From positions 1 through 37,841 of the IMG/VR virus record IMGVR_UViG_2850808358_000012: a DNA stretch of 37,841 nt. One strand, 5' to 3'. Under the pieces are notes generated by a model that saw only the letters and a list, made by a program, of their open reading frames with translations, did not search any database and was not told the DNA's origin. The stretch comes from a virus. Its lineage: Duplodnaviria; Heunggongvirae; Uroviricota; Caudoviricetes. Shown piece by piece: positions 10,716 to 37,841 of this stretch. The translations under genes and the position numbers were made by a program. Each line of letters opens with the position of its first letter. The stretch's first letter is position 1.

Positions 10716-12541
10716 CAGGACGGGGCAAGCTGGAGTGCCCCCATTACCGGGCCACCCAGACGTGACAACGCACGACCGGCACCTTTCCCCATCCAGCCCA
10801 GCGCCCCGGCACCTTTTGTCACAACCCGACCGATCGCACTGCCTGCAAGTTTGTTTCCGATACCGGAAAACCACCCGCCAACAGCACGCCCGGCATCAGC
10901 CAGCTTTCCGACCGTTCCCGTAACCAGTTGCCCGGCAGCACTGCCTGCAAGCCTGCTCAGAAGACCGGATTTACCGGGTAAAGGTAATGGTGCAGGCCGT
11001 GCCGTTACCGGTACGCCGGGTGGGGGTAATGCCAGTACAGGGCGTGGTGCAGGTAATGCCAGCGGCTGTGGCCCGGACAGCAATAACGGCTGGCGGGGTA
11101 ACAGCGGGGCCATTCTTCCGCCGCTCCGTCCGCGACGACCGCCGCCACTCCCGTAGCCACCAAATCCACGGGGCCAGTTGATGACAAACACACGCTGAAT
11201 GCCGGTGCCCTGCAACAGCGTCTCAGACGTCATGGCATCCGGCACCGGCAGACCTGCCCGCCCACGTTTGCGGTTCCGCATCCAGCGCCACATACGACGC
11301 CCGGTTTTAAACGGGTAACTGGCAACCTGCCACGAAGGTTTTGCCACGGCCCAGCCTGCTCTCAGGGCTTTATTGGCAAGCCAGACAGACACCAGAACAG
11401 CAGCCAGTTTTTTCAGGCTGGCAATATTCTGGTCAACCCATGCCAGCGCATCTTTACCCGGTTTCAGCCAGCGCCATAATTCCTGCGCCGCGATTTTTAC
11501 CGTTCTGAACGTGGTCAGAAATTTCTGACCAATGTTTTCTGCCAGTGCGTCAAGTTCCCCGGATTTATCCGCCATGTCGTGCCAGTTAAGTACCCGGCGC
11601 ATCTCGTTCTTGATTTCTTCAAAGGGGCCGCTGTTTGCCACCTTTGTACGAAACTCAAGCAGATTGCCCTCCATCTGGGCCATCATCCCGTCCCAGGAGT
11701 TCATGGCCGCCGCCTGTGCGCCTTTTGACTGTTCCAGTAAGATTCTGAACACCGTCAGGATGGATTTCAGGCCCAGTTTGCCTTTTTCACCCAGCTTACG
11801 GATTTTTTTCTCATCCTCACCCGTTGCATCTGCCAGCACCTTGTAAACGTTGATACCGTAACCGGTCAGCAGGTTGGCATCCGCCGCCGTGATTTGCTGA
11901 CGGGCAAACATCTGTTTGAACTGTAACGAAGCCCCCTGTGCAGTGGGTAAATCCCAGCCATGCATCGCGCCCTGGTTCTGTAGCATGGTGATGAACTGTT
12001 TTACCTGGGCATCAGTCATGCCAAACGCAGTTGATGTGCGGATCTCCTGCAGAACACCACCCAGCCCCCAGGTGGTTTCTTTTGCGTTCTGCTTCGCCCA
12101 CGCCATCATGGCCTGTGCTCTGGCCTTATCGCCGTGATAGAGCGAGTTCATGGCGATAATCTGCTGCTCACGCTGGGCGGCTGCACCAATAAACAGTTTA
12201 TTGGCGGTGTAACCCACGCCAGCGATACCCAGCGCCCCGGCTGACAGCATTCGGAATGTACGGGTTGACAGAGAACCCATTCTGTCAATGGCACCAGAAA
12301 CGCGCACAACCTCCATACGCAGGGCACGCAGGGAACTTTGTCCGCTACGGGACAGGGCGTTTATCTGGTTCGAATACTGGCGGGAACGCCGGGAAAGATT
12401 GCCATTAAGATCAATAATGACAGACGCTTTTAAGCGTTTCCCGGTCACAGAAATCTCCTGATTTAACGGTGATATTGAGAGAGGGTTTTCGCCTGCTGGC
12501 AGTGCCGGAAAAAGCGGGACAGCGGGAGGGACAAGGCCCAT
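10715..12541 (-). CDS. Tail tape measure protein
   Basis: 608 aa, between tail assembly chaperone and N-like gene; Gly- and Pro-rich C-terminal region. Confidence 0.7.
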   Translation of the reverse strand: MGLVPPAVPLFPALPAGENPLSISPLNQEISVTGKRLKASVIIDLNGNLSRRSRQYSNQINALSRSGQSSLRALRMEVVRVSGAIDRMGSLSTRTFRMLSAGALGIAGVGYTANKLFIGAAAQREQQIIAMNSLYHGDKARAQAMMAWAKQNAKETTWGLGGVLQEIRTSTAFGMTDAQVKQFITMLQNQGAMHGWDLPTAQGASLQFKQMFARQQITAADANLLTGYGINVYKVLADATGEDEKKIRKLGEKGKLGLKSILTVFRILLEQSKGAQAAAMNSWDGMMAQMEGNLLEFRTKVANSGPFEEIKNEMRRVLNWHDMADKSGELDALAENIGQKFLTTFRTVKIAAQELWRWLKPGKDALAWVDQNIASLKKLAAVLVSVWLANKALRAGWAVAKPSWQVASYPFKTGRRMWRWMRNRKRGRAGLPVPDAMTSETLLQGTGIQRVFVINWPRGFGGYGSGGGRRGRSGGRMAPLLPRQPLLLSGPQPLALPAPRPVLALPPPGVPVTARPAPLPLPGKSGLLSRLAGSAAGQLVTGTVGKLADAGRAVGGWFSGIGNKLAGSAIGRVVTKGAGALGWMGKGAGRALSRLGGPVMGALQLAPS

Positions 12542-16087: not shown

Positions 16088-16453
16088 TTACCGGTTCCCC
16101 AGCGCCGCACTGACGGCTTTCACTTTGGGTTCCCCCCCTGCGGTAAAGTGTTCCGGGTTTGCCTTATCCAGACCGGCAACGGTCGCACGGATACGGGCGT
16201 TCAGATCGCCCACACCCAGACCGTCCAGCCCCCCAGCCTCAGTGAGCGTTTCTGCTGACGATGCAGATACCACAGACAGCACGCTGTCGGCACGAATGAT
16301 CGCCAGTTGTTCTTCGGTGACTTCCACGGTGTTTTCGCCACGTGTAAAGGCGATTCCGGCGCGGCGGTAGACCGGACGAAGGCATTTAATAATCGCCGTG
16401 CAAGTGATGCGAGAAGTGTCCAGCCGTTGTGAATTAAGCGAAGTGCCTGACAT
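16088..16453 (-). CDS. Hypothetical head protein downstream of major capsid gene
   Basis: 121-aa ORF. Confidence 0.45.
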   Translation of the reverse strand: MSGTSLNSQRLDTSRITCTAIIKCLRPVYRRAGIAFTRGENTVEVTEEQLAIIRADSVLSVVSASSAETLTEAGGLDGLGVGDLNARIRATVAGLDKANPEHFTAGGEPKVKAVSAALGNR

Positions 16454-16519: not shown

Positions 16520-17437
16520 TTACAGGTAGTCAGCGACAACCAGTTGCAGCTTGCCCTTCATCTCGTTGGAGACGGTGGTATTGCCATCCGCGAACAGTTC
16601 ACGGTTAAGCAGTTGCTCTGCGGCTTTTTCCAGCCCGACCGGTACAACGATATGCGTCGGCTTCAGGCCCAGCTTCTTACCGCCATCACCTTCAAAAGAT
16701 CGCATCAGTTGCCAGCCCTTCCAGAGGTTATCCAGCGTCAGATCGCCTTTTACCGCGACAGCCATCTGCCAGAAGCCGTAACCGGCAGCACGGCGGGCGC
16801 TGGCACCAAACAGGAACTCGTTATCCATAAAAACGTGGTCGTCATCGATACGGGTACGTGCGACCAGCTCCGGTTTGCGGCGCTCCTGGAAAATCAGCGG
16901 TTTGACTGCGCGGGAGCAGTCCAGCAGATAGAACGGCAGACCGCTGAAGCTGTCCTGCTCAACGATGTTGGAGGTATTAACCGCGCTGCCCGTGCCGTCC
17001 ACATTCGGATATACCGGATGCTCCTTGTCGAAGAAGTTCTGACCGTCATAGCACGGCTGGGTAAAGCCATCTTTCAGAAGTTTAAAAATCAGCTCATCCG
17101 GCTGAACTGCCGCAGAACGGCCCATCTCCTGAAAAATCGGCGCATAAATACCCAGATTGTCATCCTCGAAGTCATCACGGGAAATACCCACGGTGCCTTC
17201 AAACGTTTTATTGGCGATGGAGTAGCCATGCGCTTCCATTTGCTGAATGGTTCGCTTACCCACCCATTCTTTCAGGGTCGGGAATTTACCCAGCCAGCCA
17301 TAGGTATTACTGCGGGTGGAAGAGTTCACCACCATTGCAATTTTGTTGTACTGCGACGGGGCGTCTTCAAGACCGCCCTGAAAATCCTTACGCCAGGAGG
17401 TCATCAGGGCTTTAATGGATGCCGGGGTGACAATCAT
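16520..17437 (-). CDS. T: Major head subunit (Mu T-like)
   Basis: 305 aa, position after protease/scaffold gene. Confidence 0.75.
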   Translation of the reverse strand: MIVTPASIKALMTSWRKDFQGGLEDAPSQYNKIAMVVNSSTRSNTYGWLGKFPTLKEWVGKRTIQQMEAHGYSIANKTFEGTVGISRDDFEDDNLGIYAPIFQEMGRSAAVQPDELIFKLLKDGFTQPCYDGQNFFDKEHPVYPNVDGTGSAVNTSNIVEQDSFSGLPFYLLDCSRAVKPLIFQERRKPELVARTRIDDDHVFMDNEFLFGASARRAAGYGFWQMAVAVKGDLTLDNLWKGWQLMRSFEGDGGKKLGLKPTHIVVPVGLEKAAEQLLNRELFADGNTTVSNEMKGKLQLVVADYL

Positions 17438-18518
17438 TTTTCTTGTTCCTGTTTCATTTTCAGATACTCAGCCTCTGTAATGCCGAGCGCCTTCACTGCT
17501 GCCTGTTCATCAGCAGACAGCACCGCCACCGCCGTTTTTTCCTGCGACGGGATTTTCGCTGTGGTGGTCTGCATGGCAGATAACGCAGCGATGGGCTGTT
17601 TTTTCTCAAGCTGTGCCGACAGTGCCGCCACGCCAATCTGACCGCCAAGCTGTTCCAGGTAAGAGCGTTCGCTTTTGAAAATGCGGCCTTCCTGTTCCGC
17701 CTTGTCCAGAGCGGCGCTCAGGCTGGCTGTGGCGCTTTGTGCAGTCGCCTGTGCCAGTTCATCACGCAGGGCGTTGTAGCTTTCCACCGGGACGTATTTC
17801 GTCAGGTCAACGGCGGCTTTCTGTGCCTTTTCCAGTTCGGCAGACAACGCCGCCACTTTTCCGGCATCTGTTTCGAGCGCATCAAGCGCACTCAGGGCCG
17901 CGATGGCCTGTTCATCGGTGATGTCTGCATTTTCGGGGACCGTCACCCCAAGACGCGCAAGCAGCTTGCGCAGCGTTTCATTCATGGGTTTGTTCTCCTG
18001 TTGAAGGATGTCGGGAAGGTCTGCCGCCAGTGCGGTCAGCTTTTTCATGCCGGTGGCACCGGGGTCATTGGTCAGCGCAGCAAGGCGGATTTGCAGCACC
18101 GCACCGGTGGCGGTGTCATACGGAAAAACCGCAGAGAGATAACCAAATTCGCCGTCATCGATGCGCTGCTGGGCCGCCGCCGTCCAGCGTGGGTGGATAA
18201 ATAACCCTTCACCTTCACGCCACTGCATTTCATCGGCGTTAAACCAGCCAGCCGCGACGAGTTGTTCCGGGGCAATCCTTTGTCCTTACGTAGCTGGTTA
18301 TGCTCGTAATCAATCAGCACGTCCTGGTTGAGCGCGCGAACGCCTTCAACCAGACGCCCGGCAATCTCACCGTCGATGAACCACCCCTGACCGCCTGTCA
18401 CATCAAACGGACGACCATCACGGGCACTGAAATGACCGGCAGGCAATAGCTGGCACCAGCCGTCAGCGTCAATGGACAGCGCACTCAGTGCGGCAATGCC
18501 AATCGCGTGTTTTTTCAT
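17434..18518 (-). CDS. I: Head protease/scaffold protein (Mu I-like), frameshifted as sequenced
   Basis: Two overlapping ORFs (18072..18518 and 17434..18228). The protein-like reading switches frame between 18265 and 18285; one extra base in the G4 run 18269-18272 or the T3 run 18279-18281 restores a single ~361-aa ORF. Confidence 0.65.
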
Positions 18519-19874: not shown

Positions 19875-20536
19875 GAATGACGCACCATAACTGACCTGTA
19901 GCCCAGTTCTTTCATGCGGGCCGCAGACACCGCCCGGACGCGACAGCGGCAGTTCCAGCCATTGGGCGGGTAATGCGTCTGCCAGAAAATGTCGTCATAC
20001 CTGAAAACCATATTGTGCAGCCGCGCATGTTCCGGGCGTGTTCTGCCATCCATAACGGCAACATACTGCCAGTACGGGTACAAATCTGCGGTATTCATCA
20101 TCTGCGCATAACGTCCTGCCCCATACGCCGTACGGGTATTGACGTTATAAATGGTTGCCAGACGACGCGGACTGCCCAGCTCGATTACCTTTGCGTTTCC
20201 CTCTGCATCCACGATGATTTGTTTTCCCCACCATCCGAGTTTTTGCAACCGGGGGGCCAGTGTGCGGGTAAATTCCTCACGGGTGATGCCTTCACTGACA
20301 GCCCGCTCCACTTCCTCACGGATTGTGGTCAGGACATCCATCCGGGTGGCTTTGGCAACGGTAAAGGCGCGGGCGTGCGCGTCTGCCAGTTGTTCGTACC
20401 AGTTCCAGGTGATGTTGTAGCCTTTGGCGCGGAAATACGCGACAGCCTCCTTTGGCGGGAGGCGTGCGGCATACGCCAGATCAATGGTCTGCTGCGGCAT
20501 CCAGACGCCCCCATATATCGGCAACAAAAATGGCAC
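19871..20536 (-). CDS. F: Head morphogenesis protein with Mu F-like domain (first part)
   Basis: Motif DGRTRPEHARLHN...PPNGWNCRC typical of the Mu F / SPP1 gp7 family; start codon uncertain (M1 at 20536 or M13 at 20500). Confidence 0.6.
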   Translation of the reverse strand: MPFLLPIYGGVWMPQQTIDLAYAARLPPKEAVAYFRAKGYNITWNWYEQLADAHARAFTVAKATRMDVLTTIREEVERAVSEGITREEFTRTLAPRLQKLGWWGKQIIVDAEGNAKVIELGSPRRLATIYNVNTRTAYGAGRYAQMMNTADLYPYWQYVAVMDGRTRPEHARLHNMVFRYDDIFWQTHYPPNGWNCRCRVRAVSAARMKELGYRSVMVRHS

Positions 20537-22019: not shown

Positions 22020-23673
22020 TACCAGCCCCCTCGTTCAAACTGGTGATAATCATCAAAATCATCGTTATCAACACCATCACCACGGTGGCGTGGTGGCAGC
22101 GCCTGTATGCTGTCCTCGTCGATAACAAAACCATTCATATAAGACGCCCTGACAGCCATACAGAGCGCCACGGCAAAGTCGCCATGTCGTCGGCCTTTAC
22201 CGCCTTCGTCTTTTGTGCGCCCCTTATCAATCTGCGGAATACCTTTGTCCACCTTGATGTGGAGCAGGTCATCAAGTGTGGTCTGGTGCCGGGCAATCGT
22301 GATGTTCTGCGCTTCAAACTCGCCTTTCAGTTTCGGCATCCACTCCTGATACCAGGATGCGGTCAGATTCACACAGTCGATCATCTCCGGGCCATAAATC
22401 AGACGGGCGGCTTCTGCCAGATAACCGCCGTTACCGGTGGCATCAAATGCAGCGCCGGTAAAACGGGGCAAACGGGACAGAATGAATAAAAGGATTTGTC
22501 GCTGCTGGTCATAGGTCACATTACGCAGCTCCACGCGGAAACATTCGCGTTTGCGTAAGTCAGGCGTGATGGCAAGCGGCACAAACACCGTCAGGTCGCC
22601 ACGGCGTGCAAAGTCTTCGCCCAGTACGTGTTTATTGAGCGGCGACAGCGCATCGAGCAACGGGAGCAGCTCCTGTTCACACCAGTCCTGAACGATGCCG
22701 TGGCGCATTTGTGGTGTCAGCGATTCAAAATCGTCCGGGGCTTCAAAACGCAGAACCGGGATATCCCGCGCGGGTGTCATGGCAGCTTCAATCAGCACGC
22801 GTGACAGATAAGCGCCCCGGATTTTTTAGGAATGCAGCCGTATTCCTCGTCGGCGCTCTCTTTATTCGGCGCATTCCGGTACAGGCCATCACGCCAGGCT
22901 TTTTCCGCTTCCGGCGACCACGGCTGATTCGTGACGTAACAGATACGCCGGTACAACCCGTCAGCGATGGCATCATCCAGTGTGATGCGGTGAACGCTGT
23001 AATCCTTGCGCCCCTCGCGCGCATCCTGAATGTACTGGTTAAACAGGTTATCGACGCCGTTATGTGTCGATATGATGCGCACGCTGGCACCCCACATGTT
23101 TAGTGCAAAGGCCGCTTTCAGCAGTTCGTCCAGGGCTTCATGGAATGCCGCTTCATCAATCACCACGTCCCCCTGCAAACCACGCAGGTTAGACGGGCGG
23201 CTTGACAGCGCCTGTATCTTAAATCCGCTGTTCGGAAAGCGGATCATGTAGGTGAGGATTTCTTCTTTTTTGTCGCTGTCCCAGAAGGTCTGCTCCCAGA
23301 CGTCAGCCTTTGCCAGCTGGTTAAAGGCGCGGGCAAACAGGGCACAGGCGGCGATGTATTCCAGCGCCATTTCCTGACGGGAACCCACATAAAAGACGTT
23401 GCGACCACCGCGACGCTTCGGCTTTGCTGCCGTCATGACATTGCGGCCCGCTTCAGCCCATGTCAGACCGGTACGACGGGATTTTTCAGCGATGCAAATC
23501 TGGCTTTCATCCTCAAACCAGCGGCGCTGATAGCCCAGAAAAACCGGTTCATTGCGGGGCTGTGCTTCCCCGATATCGGTCACGATATTCACGCCGAGCA
23601 GTTCGGCTTCCTTACGCAGGTTGATTTTGCGGGGCGCATGAAGGGCTTTAAGTTTGCTTTCTCTGGTGCTCAC
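22019..23673 (-). CDS. Terminase large subunit, frameshifted as sequenced
   Basis: Two ORFs (22792..23673 and 22019..22798) in frames differing by 1 nt. The downstream frame is open from 22825; one extra A in the A6 run (plus-strand T6 at 22822-22827) restores a ~552-aa ORF. Confidence 0.7.
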
Positions 23674-23728
23674 GGGTGAAAAATCCGGTATAAATTTTCA
23701 GGCATTAATCAGTAAAAAAGAGGTTTTT

Positions 23729-23923
23729 ATGAAAGAGAAACTGACCATTGATCAAAAAATCGAAATTGCCCGGATAGCCGTGCAAATGTTTGAATCCACC
23801 CGGGCAAAAGGCGTTTCACTTGAGATCTCCTGTTCAGGAAAAGCATCAGTGGAAGAAAACACATTTAATGCTTTCTACAAAATTGTTGAAAAAACCGTTA
23901 TCGGTGAACCTGAGAATAACTGA
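23729..23923 (+). CDS. Small hypothetical protein (64 aa) on the opposite strand
   Basis: Strong SD (AAGAGG 5 nt upstream of ATG); AT-rich; converges on and overlaps the 3' end of the 23898..24095 ORF. Confidence 0.5.
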   Translation: MKEKLTIDQKIEIARIAVQMFESTRAKGVSLEISCSGKASVEENTFNAFYKIVEKTVIGEPENN

Positions 23924-24095
23924 TCACCTGGCCCGCTGTAGCCGGGCCATCCACCAGTTGCATAACCAGATACAGGGCCTCGGCCATAATTCGTGGATGG
24001 ACTTCCGGATCCTCATCAATCTGTTTTTTCACAACGGGCCACAGTGCCATTGCCAGTTCTGTTGAGGTTTTGTATTTAGTTTTTTCATCCGCCAT
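23898..24095 (-). CDS. Small hypothetical protein (65 aa)
   Basis: GAGGAG 6 nt upstream of the second ATG (MADEKTKYK...); AT-rich segment between gp27-like gene and terminase. Confidence 0.45.
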   Translation of the reverse strand: MADEKTKYKTSTELAMALWPVVKKQIDEDPEVHPRIMAEALYLVMQLVDGPATAGQVISYSQVHR

Positions 24096-24105
24096 TTTCA
24101 TCTCC

Positions 24106-24276
24106 TCAGGACAAAGTCCTTAGTTGTTTTATGGTCGTATGCCATGAATTGCCTGAAGCCATAGCCTGAACAAGCACATCCCGAATCTGGTGTATCAACC
24201 GGACATCAGACAATGTTGCAATCCTGAAGGCTTTTTTATGGGCACTGATTAGCTGTGCTTTGTAATTATTTTTCAT
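24106..24276 (-). CDS. Small hypothetical protein (56 aa)
   Basis: Distal part of six-frame ORF 24106..24471; starts 10 nt after the stop of the 24287..24877 gene. Confidence 0.35.
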   Translation of the reverse strand: MKNNYKAQLISAHKKAFRIATLSDVRLIHQIRDVLVQAMASGNSWHTTIKQLRTLS

Positions 24277-24286
24277 AACGTAACGC

Positions 24287-27218: not shown

Positions 27219-27229
27219 ATTTTCCCCGG

Positions 27230-30386: not shown

Positions 30387-30992
30387 TTATTCCTCCGTCA
30401 GTGCCACAAATTCAGAATGTTTAATGCGCTGGCATTCGGCGGGAACCGGTCCCTTCACTTCGCCAGCCAGAAGGTACACCGCAAACAAAATGCCGAATCC
30501 GTCACGGCCGTGGTGCATTTCCCACACTGATTTGATGTCAAACAGGTCAACGTCGGTAGCCACGTTAAGTTCATTGCACAGCCAGACCGGAAAATCCGGG
30601 TATTTTTCGAGCTGATTTTCACAGTCCCGGATGCGCTTCCCGTATTCACGGCCTGCCGGTATTGTCATATCCGGCATTGCCGCCCATAACTGAATATCGC
30701 CAATGAAAAGTGTTTTTGATTCAGTTACCCATCCTTCCGGTGGTAAACGGTTAAACCAGACACGCGTAACCCTCTCAGGCCCTTTGTCACCAGACAAAGA
30801 CACACCGGTTGCATTCACTGATTGCTGTAATAACGAAATAATCTCACCACGCTTAACATAAACGTCTTTCAGCCAGCGAATCGTATAAGCGTTAGCGGCT
30901 GTGTCACTCAGTTTAAAATAAGCACATGCTGTCATTTTCATTCTCTCCGGTTCTGATTCAGGCGCGAGTAGTCCCCTGACGCATCGCGCCAA
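30387..30992 (-). CDS. Hypothetical early protein downstream of gam
   Basis: 201-aa ORF; real start possibly at internal MKMTACAYF.... Confidence 0.5.
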   Translation of the reverse strand: MARCVRGLLAPESEPERMKMTACAYFKLSDTAANAYTIRWLKDVYVKRGEIISLLQQSVNATGVSLSGDKGPERVTRVWFNRLPPEGWVTESKTLFIGDIQLWAAMPDMTIPAGREYGKRIRDCENQLEKYPDFPVWLCNELNVATDVDLFDIKSVWEMHHGRDGFGILFAVYLLAGEVKGPVPAECQRIKHSEFVALTEE

Positions 30993-34031: not shown

Positions 34032-36137
34032 TTAATTAAACAGCTTTTTACGTCTTTTCTGTTCCAGAATATCCAGTGAATGATTCAGATATTCATCACG
34101 CTCAGCGTTGTATGCATTATCAAGCGTCTCCTCAGGAGCCTGAGGCTGAACTGTCACCACATTACCCACAGGGCGATAAACATTCCCCAGCCAGGGTTCT
34201 GTCGTTTTTTGTTCAATAACCTGAATACCTTCATCTTCAGCATCACGAATTTTTCCCTCAGCGCGTTTGCGCATTCCTTTAATACGCTGCTGCTGTTTGT
34301 GATATTCCGCACTGACAGGAAAGGCTGCGCGTTTATTGCCGTTCCATATCGCCTCACAAATAAAACTGCCATCCTTACGGCGCACTGTAATTCGCTCTGC
34401 ATCATGAATGTCATAGCTGATAAGCACTTTGCGACCATGTTCATCACGCAGCTCCGGCGCGTAATAAATATTCCCAAGCCATTTGATTTCGCAGCGTCTT
34501 ACCGGTCGTTCCACCATTGGGCGGAACATGTCGCGCAGCTCAAGATCACTCAGCCACTCAATTTCGGTGTCTTCTTCTGCCAGGCGTTTTTTTCTGAACT
34601 CTGTCGGGCTGTAATGCCGTCCGTTCGGTTTCATCGGCAGCTCAGAATGCGGGCGGTTGTTGTACCATTCCACGCCTTCACGAATAGCCTCAATAAGCTC
34701 CGCCCACGATGGCAGCTCGCGCATTGCCGCTTTCTGGCGGTCGTTCAGAGGCTTGTCCTGTTGCAGGGCGTTAAACGCTGAACGCAGATCACGGTTAAGT
34801 ACACGCAACGATTCCCGGTCAGCACCCTTGCCAAAATAGGTGCGATACCTCCTGGCTATACGCATCGGCAGTGTCCGGTTCAGGCGTTCAATAATGCCGC
34901 GTCCCTGTGGATTACCGGCAATACCGGTAGGGTGTTTAATCCCCAGGCGTGGCAGAATACCCACGACCTCTTTGTCCAGCATGTCAGCCGTTTCACCGGA
35001 ACCGTTATCCGAGTAATACAGGAACGGTTTTCCGTGGTTGCGAATGCCGTGCTGTATCGCACCGGCAACGGCGAACACGTTTTCGGCAAGGTCAAGACTC
35101 CAGCCAACAACAAACCGTGTTCCACCATCGATCACAAACGTGACTTCCGGTGAGAATGGACGCCCGTGGATCGGATGCGCACATTTCAGCTTCATACCGT
35201 GACCGTCACCAATCCAGACATAATTCACCGGCATAGCTGTCCAGTCGCGGCGGGTGAATCCTTCAAGCTGACGGTATTCACTGCCGGTAACGCGCCCTTT
35301 TTGTCTCACCACTTCCGGCAGTTTTTTCATGGCATACCGGACAACATCATAGGAAGGCATCACCTCCAGCATGTACGGTTCGTCCGCATGGCGACGCTGC
35401 CATTCTGCGACAAAATCCTCGTAGGCTTCTGACATGGGTCTGCCGTTCACCTGCCGATACTGCGCCAGAAATTCAGGCAGCCAGCTGATTTCTTCCGGTT
35501 TTATTTCGTCGCGTTTTCCCGGTGCCAGTAACAGCAGCCGTTCGGCGGCGTTCTGCGACTGGTTGTATTTCAGAACCCACTGGTAAAGTGGATCGCGGCT
35601 GATAGTACGATTAGCGCCACGTTTTGCATTGGCGTTAACTGCGGCCTGTTGCAGGCGCTCCGGCAGCTCACCTTTACGGGCTTTTTCAACAAGAAAGTTA
35701 ATGGCTTTCAGTCGCCCGAGGTTACCGGCGCTTTCCAGCTTCAGCACTTCCACCACCAGCGCAGCTCTTGCTTCAGATACCCGGCGCTGGTTTTCGGTCA
35801 GCGCATTCAGGCGTTCTTCCATCAGTTGTGGAGAACCGCGATATGCTTCGATTGCCTGGACAGCGTCAGGATTGCGTGTTTTTCTGGTAACAGCTTTCAC
35901 TTCAGAAACATTGTTCTCTGTAGCCACCAGCTGTTCCACATAGCGTTCACGCAGTGCCTTTCGTGTTATTTCAGGCAGACAATCAATGTGGTACTCAATG
36001 GCTTTTGTGCCTTCCCGACGGCGACTAACGTCACCAAGATCACGAGAAAAACGCTGTAACGCCTGTCGGATGCCTTTTGTGGTGGCTGGCATTCCTGGTA
36101 CGCCGAGCAGGTCATTTACGGTAACGTACGACTGCAT
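34032..36137 (-). CDS. A: DDE transposase A (Mu A family)
   Basis: C-terminus ...ERDEYLNHSLDILEQKRRKK matches the Mu A C-terminal tail. N-terminal domain aligns with Mu A domain I (GxP...G..KAIEY...LP.E.K) but is divergent. Start set at ATG 36137 (AGGAAGG 8 nt upstream) rather than the six-frame start at 36206. Confidence 0.85.
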   Translation of the reverse strand: MQSYVTVNDLLGVPGMPATTKGIRQALQRFSRDLGDVSRRREGTKAIEYHIDCLPEITRKALRERYVEQLVATENNVSEVKAVTRKTRNPDAVQAIEAYRGSPQLMEERLNALTENQRRVSEARAALVVEVLKLESAGNLGRLKAINFLVEKARKGELPERLQQAAVNANAKRGANRTISRDPLYQWVLKYNQSQNAAERLLLLAPGKRDEIKPEEISWLPEFLAQYRQVNGRPMSEAYEDFVAEWQRRHADEPYMLEVMPSYDVVRYAMKKLPEVVRQKGRVTGSEYRQLEGFTRRDWTAMPVNYVWIGDGHGMKLKCAHPIHGRPFSPEVTFVIDGGTRFVVGWSLDLAENVFAVAGAIQHGIRNHGKPFLYYSDNGSGETADMLDKEVVGILPRLGIKHPTGIAGNPQGRGIIERLNRTLPMRIARRYRTYFGKGADRESLRVLNRDLRSAFNALQQDKPLNDRQKAAMRELPSWAELIEAIREGVEWYNNRPHSELPMKPNGRHYSPTEFRKKRLAEEDTEIEWLSDLELRDMFRPMVERPVRRCEIKWLGNIYYAPELRDEHGRKVLISYDIHDAERITVRRKDGSFICEAIWNGNKRAAFPVSAEYHKQQQRIKGMRKRAEGKIRDAEDEGIQVIEQKTTEPWLGNVYRPVGNVVTVQPQAPEETLDNAYNAERDEYLNHSLDILEQKRRKKLFN

Positions 36138-37379: not shown

Positions 37380-37841
37380 TTACCTAGTCATATCCTTTTG
37401 GATGTCATTCTCCGGTGGCAACGGGGTGAAGCTCTTTATCACCTCCAGCAGCATCGTCTTTTGACTGTTCTTCAGGGATAAGGAGGTGCTGAAAGTGAAG
37501 GTCAGCAGCGTATCTCCACGCCGCTGGAATACGGCTATCTGGCTAATCCGCCCCTGATTCCCCTCATCTTCCGGACCGTTCCAGGAATAATCCAGCAGCC
37601 AGGCCGGGGCCTCTGCCAGAGTGATTTCCCGGCAGGCATGTTCGGTGTACCCATCAAGTTTGCCCTGGTACAGCGCCAGCGTTTCCTGGTACAGCTCTGG
37701 TGTCAGGGTTCCCTGTGGAACGGCTTCGCGGGTAATGACCAGGTTGATGCCACTGTTATCTGTGGACACCAGGACCTGCATTGACTGATCCTGCCATTGA
37801 GACGGCAGTTGAATGTGGCCTTCATTAAAAGTGAACTGCAT
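37380..37841 (-). CDS. Host DUF1795/DcrB-family protein, EagR-like T6SS effector chaperone
   Basis: 153 aa; N-terminal pattern F.EG.I.LP..WQDQS...SG.NLVITRE resembles DUF1795 proteins as I recall them; stop codon overlaps the 5-bp target duplication. Confidence 0.5.
   Translation of the reverse strand: MQFTFNEGHIQLPSQWQDQSMQVLVSTDNSGINLVITREAVPQGTLTPELYQETLALYQGKLDGYTEHACREITLAEAPAWLLDYSWNGPEDEGNQGRISQIAVFQRRGDTLLTFTFSTSLSLKNSQKTMLLEVIKSFTPLPPENDIQKDMTR

Follow-up and report, generated by a model that had tools for sequence, protein, structure and literature searches.

A Mu-like prophage appears in one viral record with its capsid protease gene divided between two open reading frames that lie in different frames, and the question raised by this locus is whether the interruption is a property of the organism, as a pseudogene or a recoded gene would be, or a property of the record. 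The record is IMGVR_UViG_2850808358_000012 (Caudoviricetes), and “the window” is used here for the whole stretch of DNA that was analysed, 37,841 nt in length. It contains a complete Mu-like prophage on the minus strand at approximately 997-37392, the late region of which is closest to that of SfMu (98.6% identity over 19 kb).

The identity of the interrupted gene can be established by standard comparisons. Over 17434-18518 the nucleotide identity is 98.1% to Mu, 98.8% to D108 and 98.3% to SfMu, and is 98-99% for Mu_3F6 as well. The gene is annotated as the capsid maturation protease in AF083977.1 and GQ357916.1, where the scaffold gene Z is nested in its 3' half. The order of genes in the window, G (virion morphogenesis)-I-T (major head protein), is the same as in the Mu and D108 annotation, and the stop codon of I overlaps the start codon of T in an ATGA at 17434-17437. 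The Pfam family PF10123 (Mu-like prophage I protein; Mu-like_Pro) is covered in two parts, from 1 to 58 by the upstream 148-aa frame and from 70 to 330 by the downstream 264-aa frame; when one C is added to the interrupted gene the product has 361 aa, 9 of which are different in Mu gpI, and its match to PF10123 extends over 1-330 of the 330 positions with 329 bits. The assignment to the Mu gene I protease/scaffold, which a sequence-only reading of the window had proposed, is borne out by the nucleotide identity of 98-99% and by this full-length match after repair. Judged from these similarities, the gene with its base restored is an unremarkable member of the Mu gene I family. The proteolytic activity of gpI in head maturation is predicted from family membership, and a sequence search of the PDB returned no solved homologue.

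The interruption can be traced to a single base. In a four-way alignment of the window with Mu, D108 and Mu_3F6 there is one 1-nt gap, at which the window has GGATTG-CCCCGG and the other three have GGATTACCCCCGG; the gene is 1085 nt long in the window, as compared to 1086 nt in all relatives. On the coding strand the window reads TTG CCC CGG where the relatives read TT(A/G) CCC CCG G. The position of the gap identifies the lesion as the plus-strand G4 run, which is the G5 run of the relatives minus one base (Table 1). The change of frame therefore lies where the sequence-only reading had placed it, between 18265 and 18285, as seen both in the two frames and in the single gap. That reading had allowed for a missing base in either of two runs, and the alignment with Mu, D108 and Mu_3F6 selects the G4; the T3 run at 18279-18281, which is identical in all relatives, is excluded. 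The neighbouring change from TTA to TTG is synonymous, and occurs together with an intact C5 in E. coli Z0117EC0098.

The native gpI frame resumes directly after the lesion, at 18268. The 264-aa fragment is a called gene in the GenBank chromosome CP026877.1, the gene caller of which made no call for the 148-aa fragment, and the 148-aa frameshift product had no exact match on record elsewhere. The nested gene Z has the ribosome-binding site AGGAG at 17995-17999, which is followed after 9 nt by the ATG at 17985 (AGGAGAACAAACCCATGAATGAA). Z lies downstream of the lesion and is hence unaffected by it; the Mu annotation likewise places the Z start inside gene I.

Table 1. Gene I, its fragments and nested gene, and the run-length lesions in the window (positions in the window).
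Feature	Position	Strand	Description
Gene I	17434..18518	minus	Mu gp32 homologue, by homology (capsid maturation protease with C-terminal scaffold domain)
Gene I lesion	18269..18272	plus	G4 (coding C4, codons CCC C/GG); G5 in relatives (Pro83-Pro84, CCC CCG)
5' fragment ORF	18072..18518	minus	148 aa: 83 native gpI residues, then 65 out-of-frame residues and a stop
3' fragment ORF	17434..18228	minus	264 aa counted from the first ATG; frame different from that of the 5' ORF
Scaffold gene Z	17434..17985	minus	Mu gp33 homologue, 183 aa, nested; own start and RBS
Terminase large subunit gene E lesion	22815..22818		C5 to C4; gene split, 293 + 259 aa; run intact in SRR6049580, PSSR01000001.1 and SRR8186600
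Head morphogenesis gene F lesion	19902..19904		C4 to C3; gene split, 221 + 230 aa; run length 4 in 22/22 relatives
gp35 lesion	16097..16100		C5 to C4 near the 3' end; 121 aa, 136 aa in relatives; run intact in 21/21
Tape measure gene lesion	10722..10725		G5 to G4; gene split, 690 aa in relatives; run intact in 12/12
Lesion in the RBS region just upstream of late activator gene C	27224..27227		C5 to C4, non-coding; run intact in 9/9
Host lesion, PAAR-Rhs toxin gene	755..758		C5 to C4 on the window strand (G5 run); paired with G7 to G8 at 800-807

A lesion that has been inherited as a pseudogene should recur among related sequences. The intact run is present in 13/13 phage records, in 43 complete E. 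coli genomes (in which all matches to a 70-nt query were of 71 nt), in 16 IMG/VR contigs (in which all matches were of 33 nt, so that the extra base is there) and in 9 metagenome contigs, and the run length was 5 at all 33 of the relative loci that were fetched. This extends to every case the comparison with the intact I genes of Mu-like phages that had been suggested as a check, the run being one base longer in all of them. The lesion is common to none of ~80 related records drawn from phages, complete E. coli genomes, IMG/VR and metagenome contigs, and it consequently does not have the distribution of an inherited pseudogene. Species-representative genomes were scanned once for the lesion site and once for a window-specific patch in gp45, in both cases with no match.

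The closest relatives provide a more exacting comparison. An exact look-up of the portal protein of the window returned four contigs: CP026877.1, the Logan assembly SRR6049580, PSSR01000001.1 and SRR8186600. The first of these, a 5.13-Mb chromosome (GCA_002950035.1), is 100% identical to the window over 10481-32019 (21.5 kb) and has the same split gene calls; on the strength of this match it is the source record of the window. SRR6049580 is 99.92% identical to the window over 19,389 nt. It has 10 substitutions, 7 of which fall in a 171-nt patch at the end of the contig and only 3 outside it, and exactly six 1-nt gaps, each of which is a G/C run that is shorter in the window. Its genes are whole, with 551 aa for E, 439 for F, 361 for I, 136 for gp35 and 690 for the tape measure protein. 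PSSR01000001.1 has a near-identical prophage in which all six runs are intact, and in SRR8186600 the run is intact at the terminase site. With one C added, gene I of the window is identical at 1086/1086 nt to the genes of SRR6049580 and PSSR01000001.1, so that the single uninterrupted frame that the window gene lacks is present in copies that are otherwise the same in every nucleotide. SRR6049580 and PSSR01000001.1 are independent assemblies, the former possibly from a different isolate.

The same comparison allows the changes on the window's own branch to be counted. The two substitutions that separate the window from both copies (10881 and 10883) are also present in other relatives, so the branch has acquired 0-2 substitutions, as against six run deletions, in 19 kb. 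Lesions of this kind are specific to individual records, since PSSR01000001.1 has, in its tape measure gene, a private -1 deletion of its own that affects another C5 run, and RM8082 has a frameshift from T6 to T5 in its lysozyme gene. A first analysis of private substitutions and dN/dS against 8 references was rejected because it was confounded by mosaicism, most of the changes that it scored as “private” belonging to a P/gp45 patch that is also found in the IMG/VR contig 2562617057_000010; it was replaced by the comparison with SRR6049580 and PSSR01000001.1. The lineage-specific changes in gene I comprise 4 non-synonymous and 0 synonymous substitutions, a ratio that speaks against a sequencing error as the cause of the split, though the intact copies share these changes.

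The gene I lesion has counterparts throughout the prophage. A gap census against five phage genomes, followed by checks against closer relatives, identified six sites that are private to the window, and across the late region, where identity is 98%, the differences from the five genomes that break a frame were all losses of 1 nt from G/C runs in the window; the census found no private insertions in the prophage. The sequence-only reading had described gene I as the second homopolymer-associated lesion in the window, together with the one in the terminase gene. The link between the two holds, but the count was too low, there being six private deletions in the prophage plus one host site within the window. 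Its suggestion that homopolymer frameshifts be sought elsewhere is answered by the five prophage deletions other than that in gene I, one of the five being non-coding, and by deletions in the host Rhs and vgrG genes. The non-coding deletion lies at the site that matches the RBS of Mu_21 in the Mu annotation. Two further short runs, A6 to A5 at the 3' end of the transposase gene A (34045-34049) and G4 to G3 downstream of mom (1118-1120), were considered as errors and rejected, the runs having the same length in independent assemblies of the prophage lineage.

Signs of decay other than run deletions were also sought in the prophage. None of the lineage-specific coding changes of the late genes creates a nonsense codon, and the prophage has no IS element and no larger private deletion. 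The gin gene is missing, but its loss is common to relatives whose late genes are otherwise intact and is therefore no part of a private decay.

The concentration of the deletions in particular runs can be evaluated over the 19.4 kb of SRR6049580. G/C runs of at least 4 make up 2.2% of the bases, and the probability that all six indels would fall in them by chance is ~1e-10. Among runs of at least 5, those shortened were 5 of the 22 G/C runs and 0 of the 68 A/T runs (Fisher p = 6e-4). If natural 1-nt indels are taken to be 1/10 to 1/5 as frequent as substitutions, in line with E. coli mutation-accumulation work, the binomial probability of at least 6 indels among eight events is 1e-5 to 4e-4. 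The prophage deletions are confined to runs of length 4 and 5, and 0/5 of the G/C runs of 6-7 are affected. The sparing of the runs of 6-7 and of the 68 A/T runs of at least 5 is not the simplest nanopore-type expectation, and to that extent it counts against an error in the record.

The host DNA on either side of the prophage was analysed in the same way, with look-ups of the tail fibre and MuB proteins extending the CP026877.1 sequence by ~6 kb beyond either end of the window. The prophage is flanked by a 5-bp direct repeat, which reads AAGGA in the orientation of its coding strand (the reverse complement of the window), and its insertion point, within a T6SS vgrG island, lies in the last codons of a DcrB/Eag-like gene, which is thereby parted from its PAAR-Rhs toxin gene. 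When the PAAR-Rhs gene is compared with those of E. coli C227-11 and M8, the stretch between the two run changes listed in Table 1 is out of frame and has a stop. The equal length of the host flank and the references conceals this +1/-1 pair, of which the +1 member is the only such change found in the record region. Outside the window, the PAAR-Rhs gene has two more -1 deletions, in a G6 run and a G4 run, and vgrG has a deletion from C5 to C4. The -1 run deletions occur at approximately one per 3-6 kb, in the host as well as in the prophage.

The host flanks also contain nonsense substitutions, with TGG to TGA twice in vgrG, CAA to TAA in cusC and GAA to TAA in Rhs, and they carry IS elements. 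The three run deletions outside the window sit in genes already broken by nonsense codons. None of 5426 complete E. coli genomes exceeds 98.7% identity to the host, which, judging from these features, is probably a Shigella with real genome decay; a literature search for the accession led only to neighbouring ones, CP026836 and CP026774, which are named as Shigella (PMC12817139). The nonsense mutations of the host flanks look genuine, which makes natural frameshifts plausible in that part of the record and weighs there against a purely technical origin.

The position and nature of the gene I lesion, its uniqueness among relatives, its six-fold repetition and the existence of intact near-identical copies are direct observations, and the explanation that very probably accounts for them is homopolymer under-calling in the assembly of CP026877.1, with base-calling or assembly as the presumed cause. 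Some G/C homopolymers in the consensus would have been called one base short; the C5 run that encodes Pro83-Pro84 of gpI would have become a C4, the frame would have shifted after residue 83, and gene callers would then register two fragments. The gene I of the real organism would most likely be intact, with 361 aa, identical to the copies in SRR6049580 and PSSR01000001.1 and with Z nested inside it. An assembly error is favoured because the near-identical copies have every run one base longer and every gene whole, and the occurrence of the same type of lesion at a similar density in host and prophage is what would be expected of a record-wide error. Each change is exactly one base in a homopolymer, the sites are many, mostly deletions and both coding and non-coding, and the runs have their full length in independent assemblies. 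The sequence-only reading had left the choice between systematic assembly error and a decaying prophage; the intact near-identical copies favour the former, and the absence of nonsense codons and IS elements from the prophage disfavours the latter.

The principal alternative is that the deletions are real, and that the prophage has become defective in I, E, F, gp35 and the tape measure gene by replication slippage in G/C runs, as part of a Shigella-like decay. Homopolymer slippage is a natural source of frameshifts, and the real-looking nonsense codons of vgrG, cusC and Rhs keep this explanation alive for the host genes, in which the run deletions affect reading frames that were already inactivated; it is also in keeping with the missing gin gene and with the fact that the longest runs are unaffected. 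In the prophage, however, it would require six frameshifts against 0-2 substitutions since the split from two intact copies (binomial p <=4e-4), all six of them deletions and none an insertion, with no nonsense codon, IS element or larger private deletion beside them, with no lesion shared by any of ~80 relatives, and with a gin loss that is not private. On balance real deletions are unlikely. If they were real, gpI would consist of 83 native and 65 foreign residues and its protease would be lost. The scaffold Z, having a separate start, would continue to be produced, but lack of the maturation protease would prevent viable heads from forming, and since E, F, gp35 and the tape measure gene are broken as well, the whole prophage would be dead. 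Even so, the finding would amount to a pseudogene of the ordinary kind, and the gene concerned is well known.

A more specific form of this alternative, in which a burst of real slippage at G/C runs inactivated a Mu-like prophage recently acquired by a Shigella-like host, while hardly any substitutions arose, is less probable again and is regarded as quite improbable. It would imply either a mutational process specific to such runs or selection for rapid disarmament of the prophage through its homopolymer tracts.

Programmed recoding, in which the ribosome or RNA polymerase would slip at the C4 run and so produce full-length gpI, has in its favour that, with a slip of -1 following CCC, the next codon read would be C-CG and the product would regain exactly Leu-Pro-Pro-Glu, and that Mu has an annotated programmed frameshift in its tail assembly chaperone gp41. 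Transcriptional slippage calls for a longer run than C4. The comparative data effectively refute programmed frameshifting, which the sequence-only reading had mentioned as evidence that could refute it and which is exceedingly improbable, given that TTG CCC CGG contains no X XXY YYZ slippery heptamer, that every relative, including the copies otherwise identical in nucleotide sequence, has gpI in one frame, and that a recoding signal cannot account for the same type of -1 lesion at five unrelated sites, one of them non-coding.

Homopolymer under-calling in CP026877.1 would have consequences mainly for quality control. Taken at face value, the record would point to a Mu-like prophage that is defective, five of its essential late genes being broken, and it would supply databases with spurious truncated proteins, namely gpI fragments of 148 and 264 aa and split versions of the terminase, F, gp35 and the tape measure protein. 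The pattern predicts run errors of this kind across CP026877.1 in numbers of the order of a thousand, and pseudogene counts made from the record would be unreliable without polishing.

Several known systems may be compared with the locus. The Mu tail assembly chaperone frameshift (gp41/Mu_56) resembles it in that two overlapping frames encode one protein of a Mu late gene, but the gp41/Mu_56 layout is conserved in all relatives, whereas the gene I split is not and has no slippery site. The defective Mu-like prophages and the pseudogenisation seen in Shigella are similar in that several late genes are interrupted and the host flanks have nonsense codons and IS elements; the difference is that the present prophage has neither, and almost no substitutions relative to intact copies.

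The residual errors of long-read sequencing bear a closer resemblance. One report states that the residual errors of long-read-only bacterial assemblies are mostly errors of homopolymer length (PMC8812927); homopolymer-length errors lead to frameshifts and fragmented gene calls (PMC9262707); and false deletions predominate, occurring most often after runs of 4-5 identical bases (PMC12007338). The window has in common with these errors the loss of one base after runs of 4-5, a density of about one per 5 kb, a large excess of deletions over insertions, and split open reading frames. It differs in that only G/C runs are affected, while A/T runs dominated the nanopore data of PMC12007338; a literature search gave nothing usable on G/C-run deletions in PacBio data. 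In its sequence features the split thus appears to belong to a known class of homopolymer assembly errors, and it would involve no new biology. The remaining comparison is with Mu gene I/Z itself, to which the locus corresponds in the G-I-T order, in the conserved internal start and RBS of Z, and in the full PF10123 match after repair, and from which it differs, in this record alone, by the lack of one base in the C5 run of codons 83-84.

Beyond the lesion in gene I, the prophage carries five further single-base deletions in G or C runs that are private to the window; each of these runs is one base longer in the two near-identical prophage copies, PSSR01000001.1 and the Logan assembly SRR6049580, and in every other relative. 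The deletions break four additional essential late genes, those of terminase E, F, gp35 and the tape measure. Private run deletions are also found in other public assemblies: in PSSR01000001.1 a C5 to C4 change at window-equivalent 11932-11936 splits the tape measure gene, and in RM8082 a T6 to T5 change at window-equivalent 26333 falls in the lysozyme gene, which is annotated there as 'frameshifted'. Record-specific run errors seem to be common among the database entries of this Mu-like prophage family.

Features of the prophage and its borders, by position in the window
Positions	Feature	Location or effect	Also in
755-758	G5 to G4 (-1)	PAAR-Rhs toxin gene (host, minus strand)
800-807	G7 to G8 (+1), adjacent C to T	PAAR-Rhs toxin gene (host, minus strand)
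992-996 / 37393-37397	junctions	5-bp target duplication
997-37392	prophage span
997-1005	right end	element terminus
about 1957-2521	loss of ~1.1 kb (Mu 34502-35613)	S' truncated	AAKB02000001.1
5945-9426	mosaic patch	P/gp45 baseplate region
10722-10725	-1 in G/C run	tape measure, split
16097-16100	-1 in G/C run	gp35, split
19902-19904	-1 in G/C run	F, split
22815-22818	-1 in G/C run	terminase E, split
23674-24286	insert relative to Mu, ~0.6 kb	small ORFs between terminase genes D and E	RM8082, PSSR01000001.1, SRR6049580
27224-27227	-1 in G/C run	upstream of gene C
30398-30952	insert relative to Mu, ~0.55 kb	182-184-aa ORF between gam and gp11	loci L055-L059
34032-34049	A5 run	3' end of transposase gene A	five independent assemblies
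37383-37392	left end	element terminus

Coding lesions are also present in the host DNA on both sides of the prophage. The PAAR-Rhs toxin gene, when compared with the E. coli genomes C227-11 and M8, has gained one G and, 45 nt further downstream in the gene, lost another, so that the 15 codons from the first site to the second are out of frame and include a stop; the part of the gene that lies outside the window (locus L052) contains two further -1 run deletions and a GAA to TAA nonsense codon. In the host DNA of CP026877.1 past the window end at 37841 (locus L058, 1-6600), vgrG has two TGG to TGA nonsense codons alongside a C5 to C4 deletion, and cusC has a CAA to TAA nonsense codon (Q177*); the cusR, cusS and DcrB-like genes are intact. 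Because identity to any complete E. coli genome is at most 98.7%, the probable host is a Shigella whose pseudogenes are genuine.

The prophage is integrated within the final three codons of the DcrB/Eag-like chaperone gene, which it parts from its PAAR-Rhs toxin gene. The target duplication found at both borders is AAGGA when read along the coding strand of the prophage and TCCTT along the plus strand of the window, and the insertion leaves the length of the chaperone unchanged, with a C-terminus of DMTR rather than DQPR.

Both inserts relative to Mu look like ordinary accessory-gene inserts. At about 50 positions the P/gp45 patch departs from Mu, SfMu and D108, yet its identity to IMG/VR contig 2562617057_000010 is 99.83%; the head genes of that contig have only 97.6% identity to the window. 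The patch looks like the product of recombination among Mu-like prophages. In the tail-fibre region, no gin invertase gene was found in the prophage by tblastn with Mu Gin, and the ~1.1-kb loss has removed one boundary of the G segment; together these indicate that the invertible segment is locked. The same gin-less, S'-truncated layout occurs in AAKB02000001.1.

The element ends are 5'-TATGACTAGG...CCGCGCTTT-3', as compared across the window and loci L043-L051 and L055-L059, and the left end has the same sequence at no fewer than ten independent insertion sites; Mu and SfMu, in contrast, have the canonical TG...CA termini. The prophage lineage has a diverged transposase of 698-701 aa and end repeats of the TTCAAGATAA type. 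The A5 run in gene A, which is A6 in the Mu, D108 and SfMu group, is natural in the lineage because five independent assemblies share it. As a result of the A5 run the transposase ends in RKKLFN, where that of the Mu, D108 and SfMu group ends in RKKAI. The C-terminal residues of MuA are the ClpX recognition signal, and the lineage may therefore differ at this signal.
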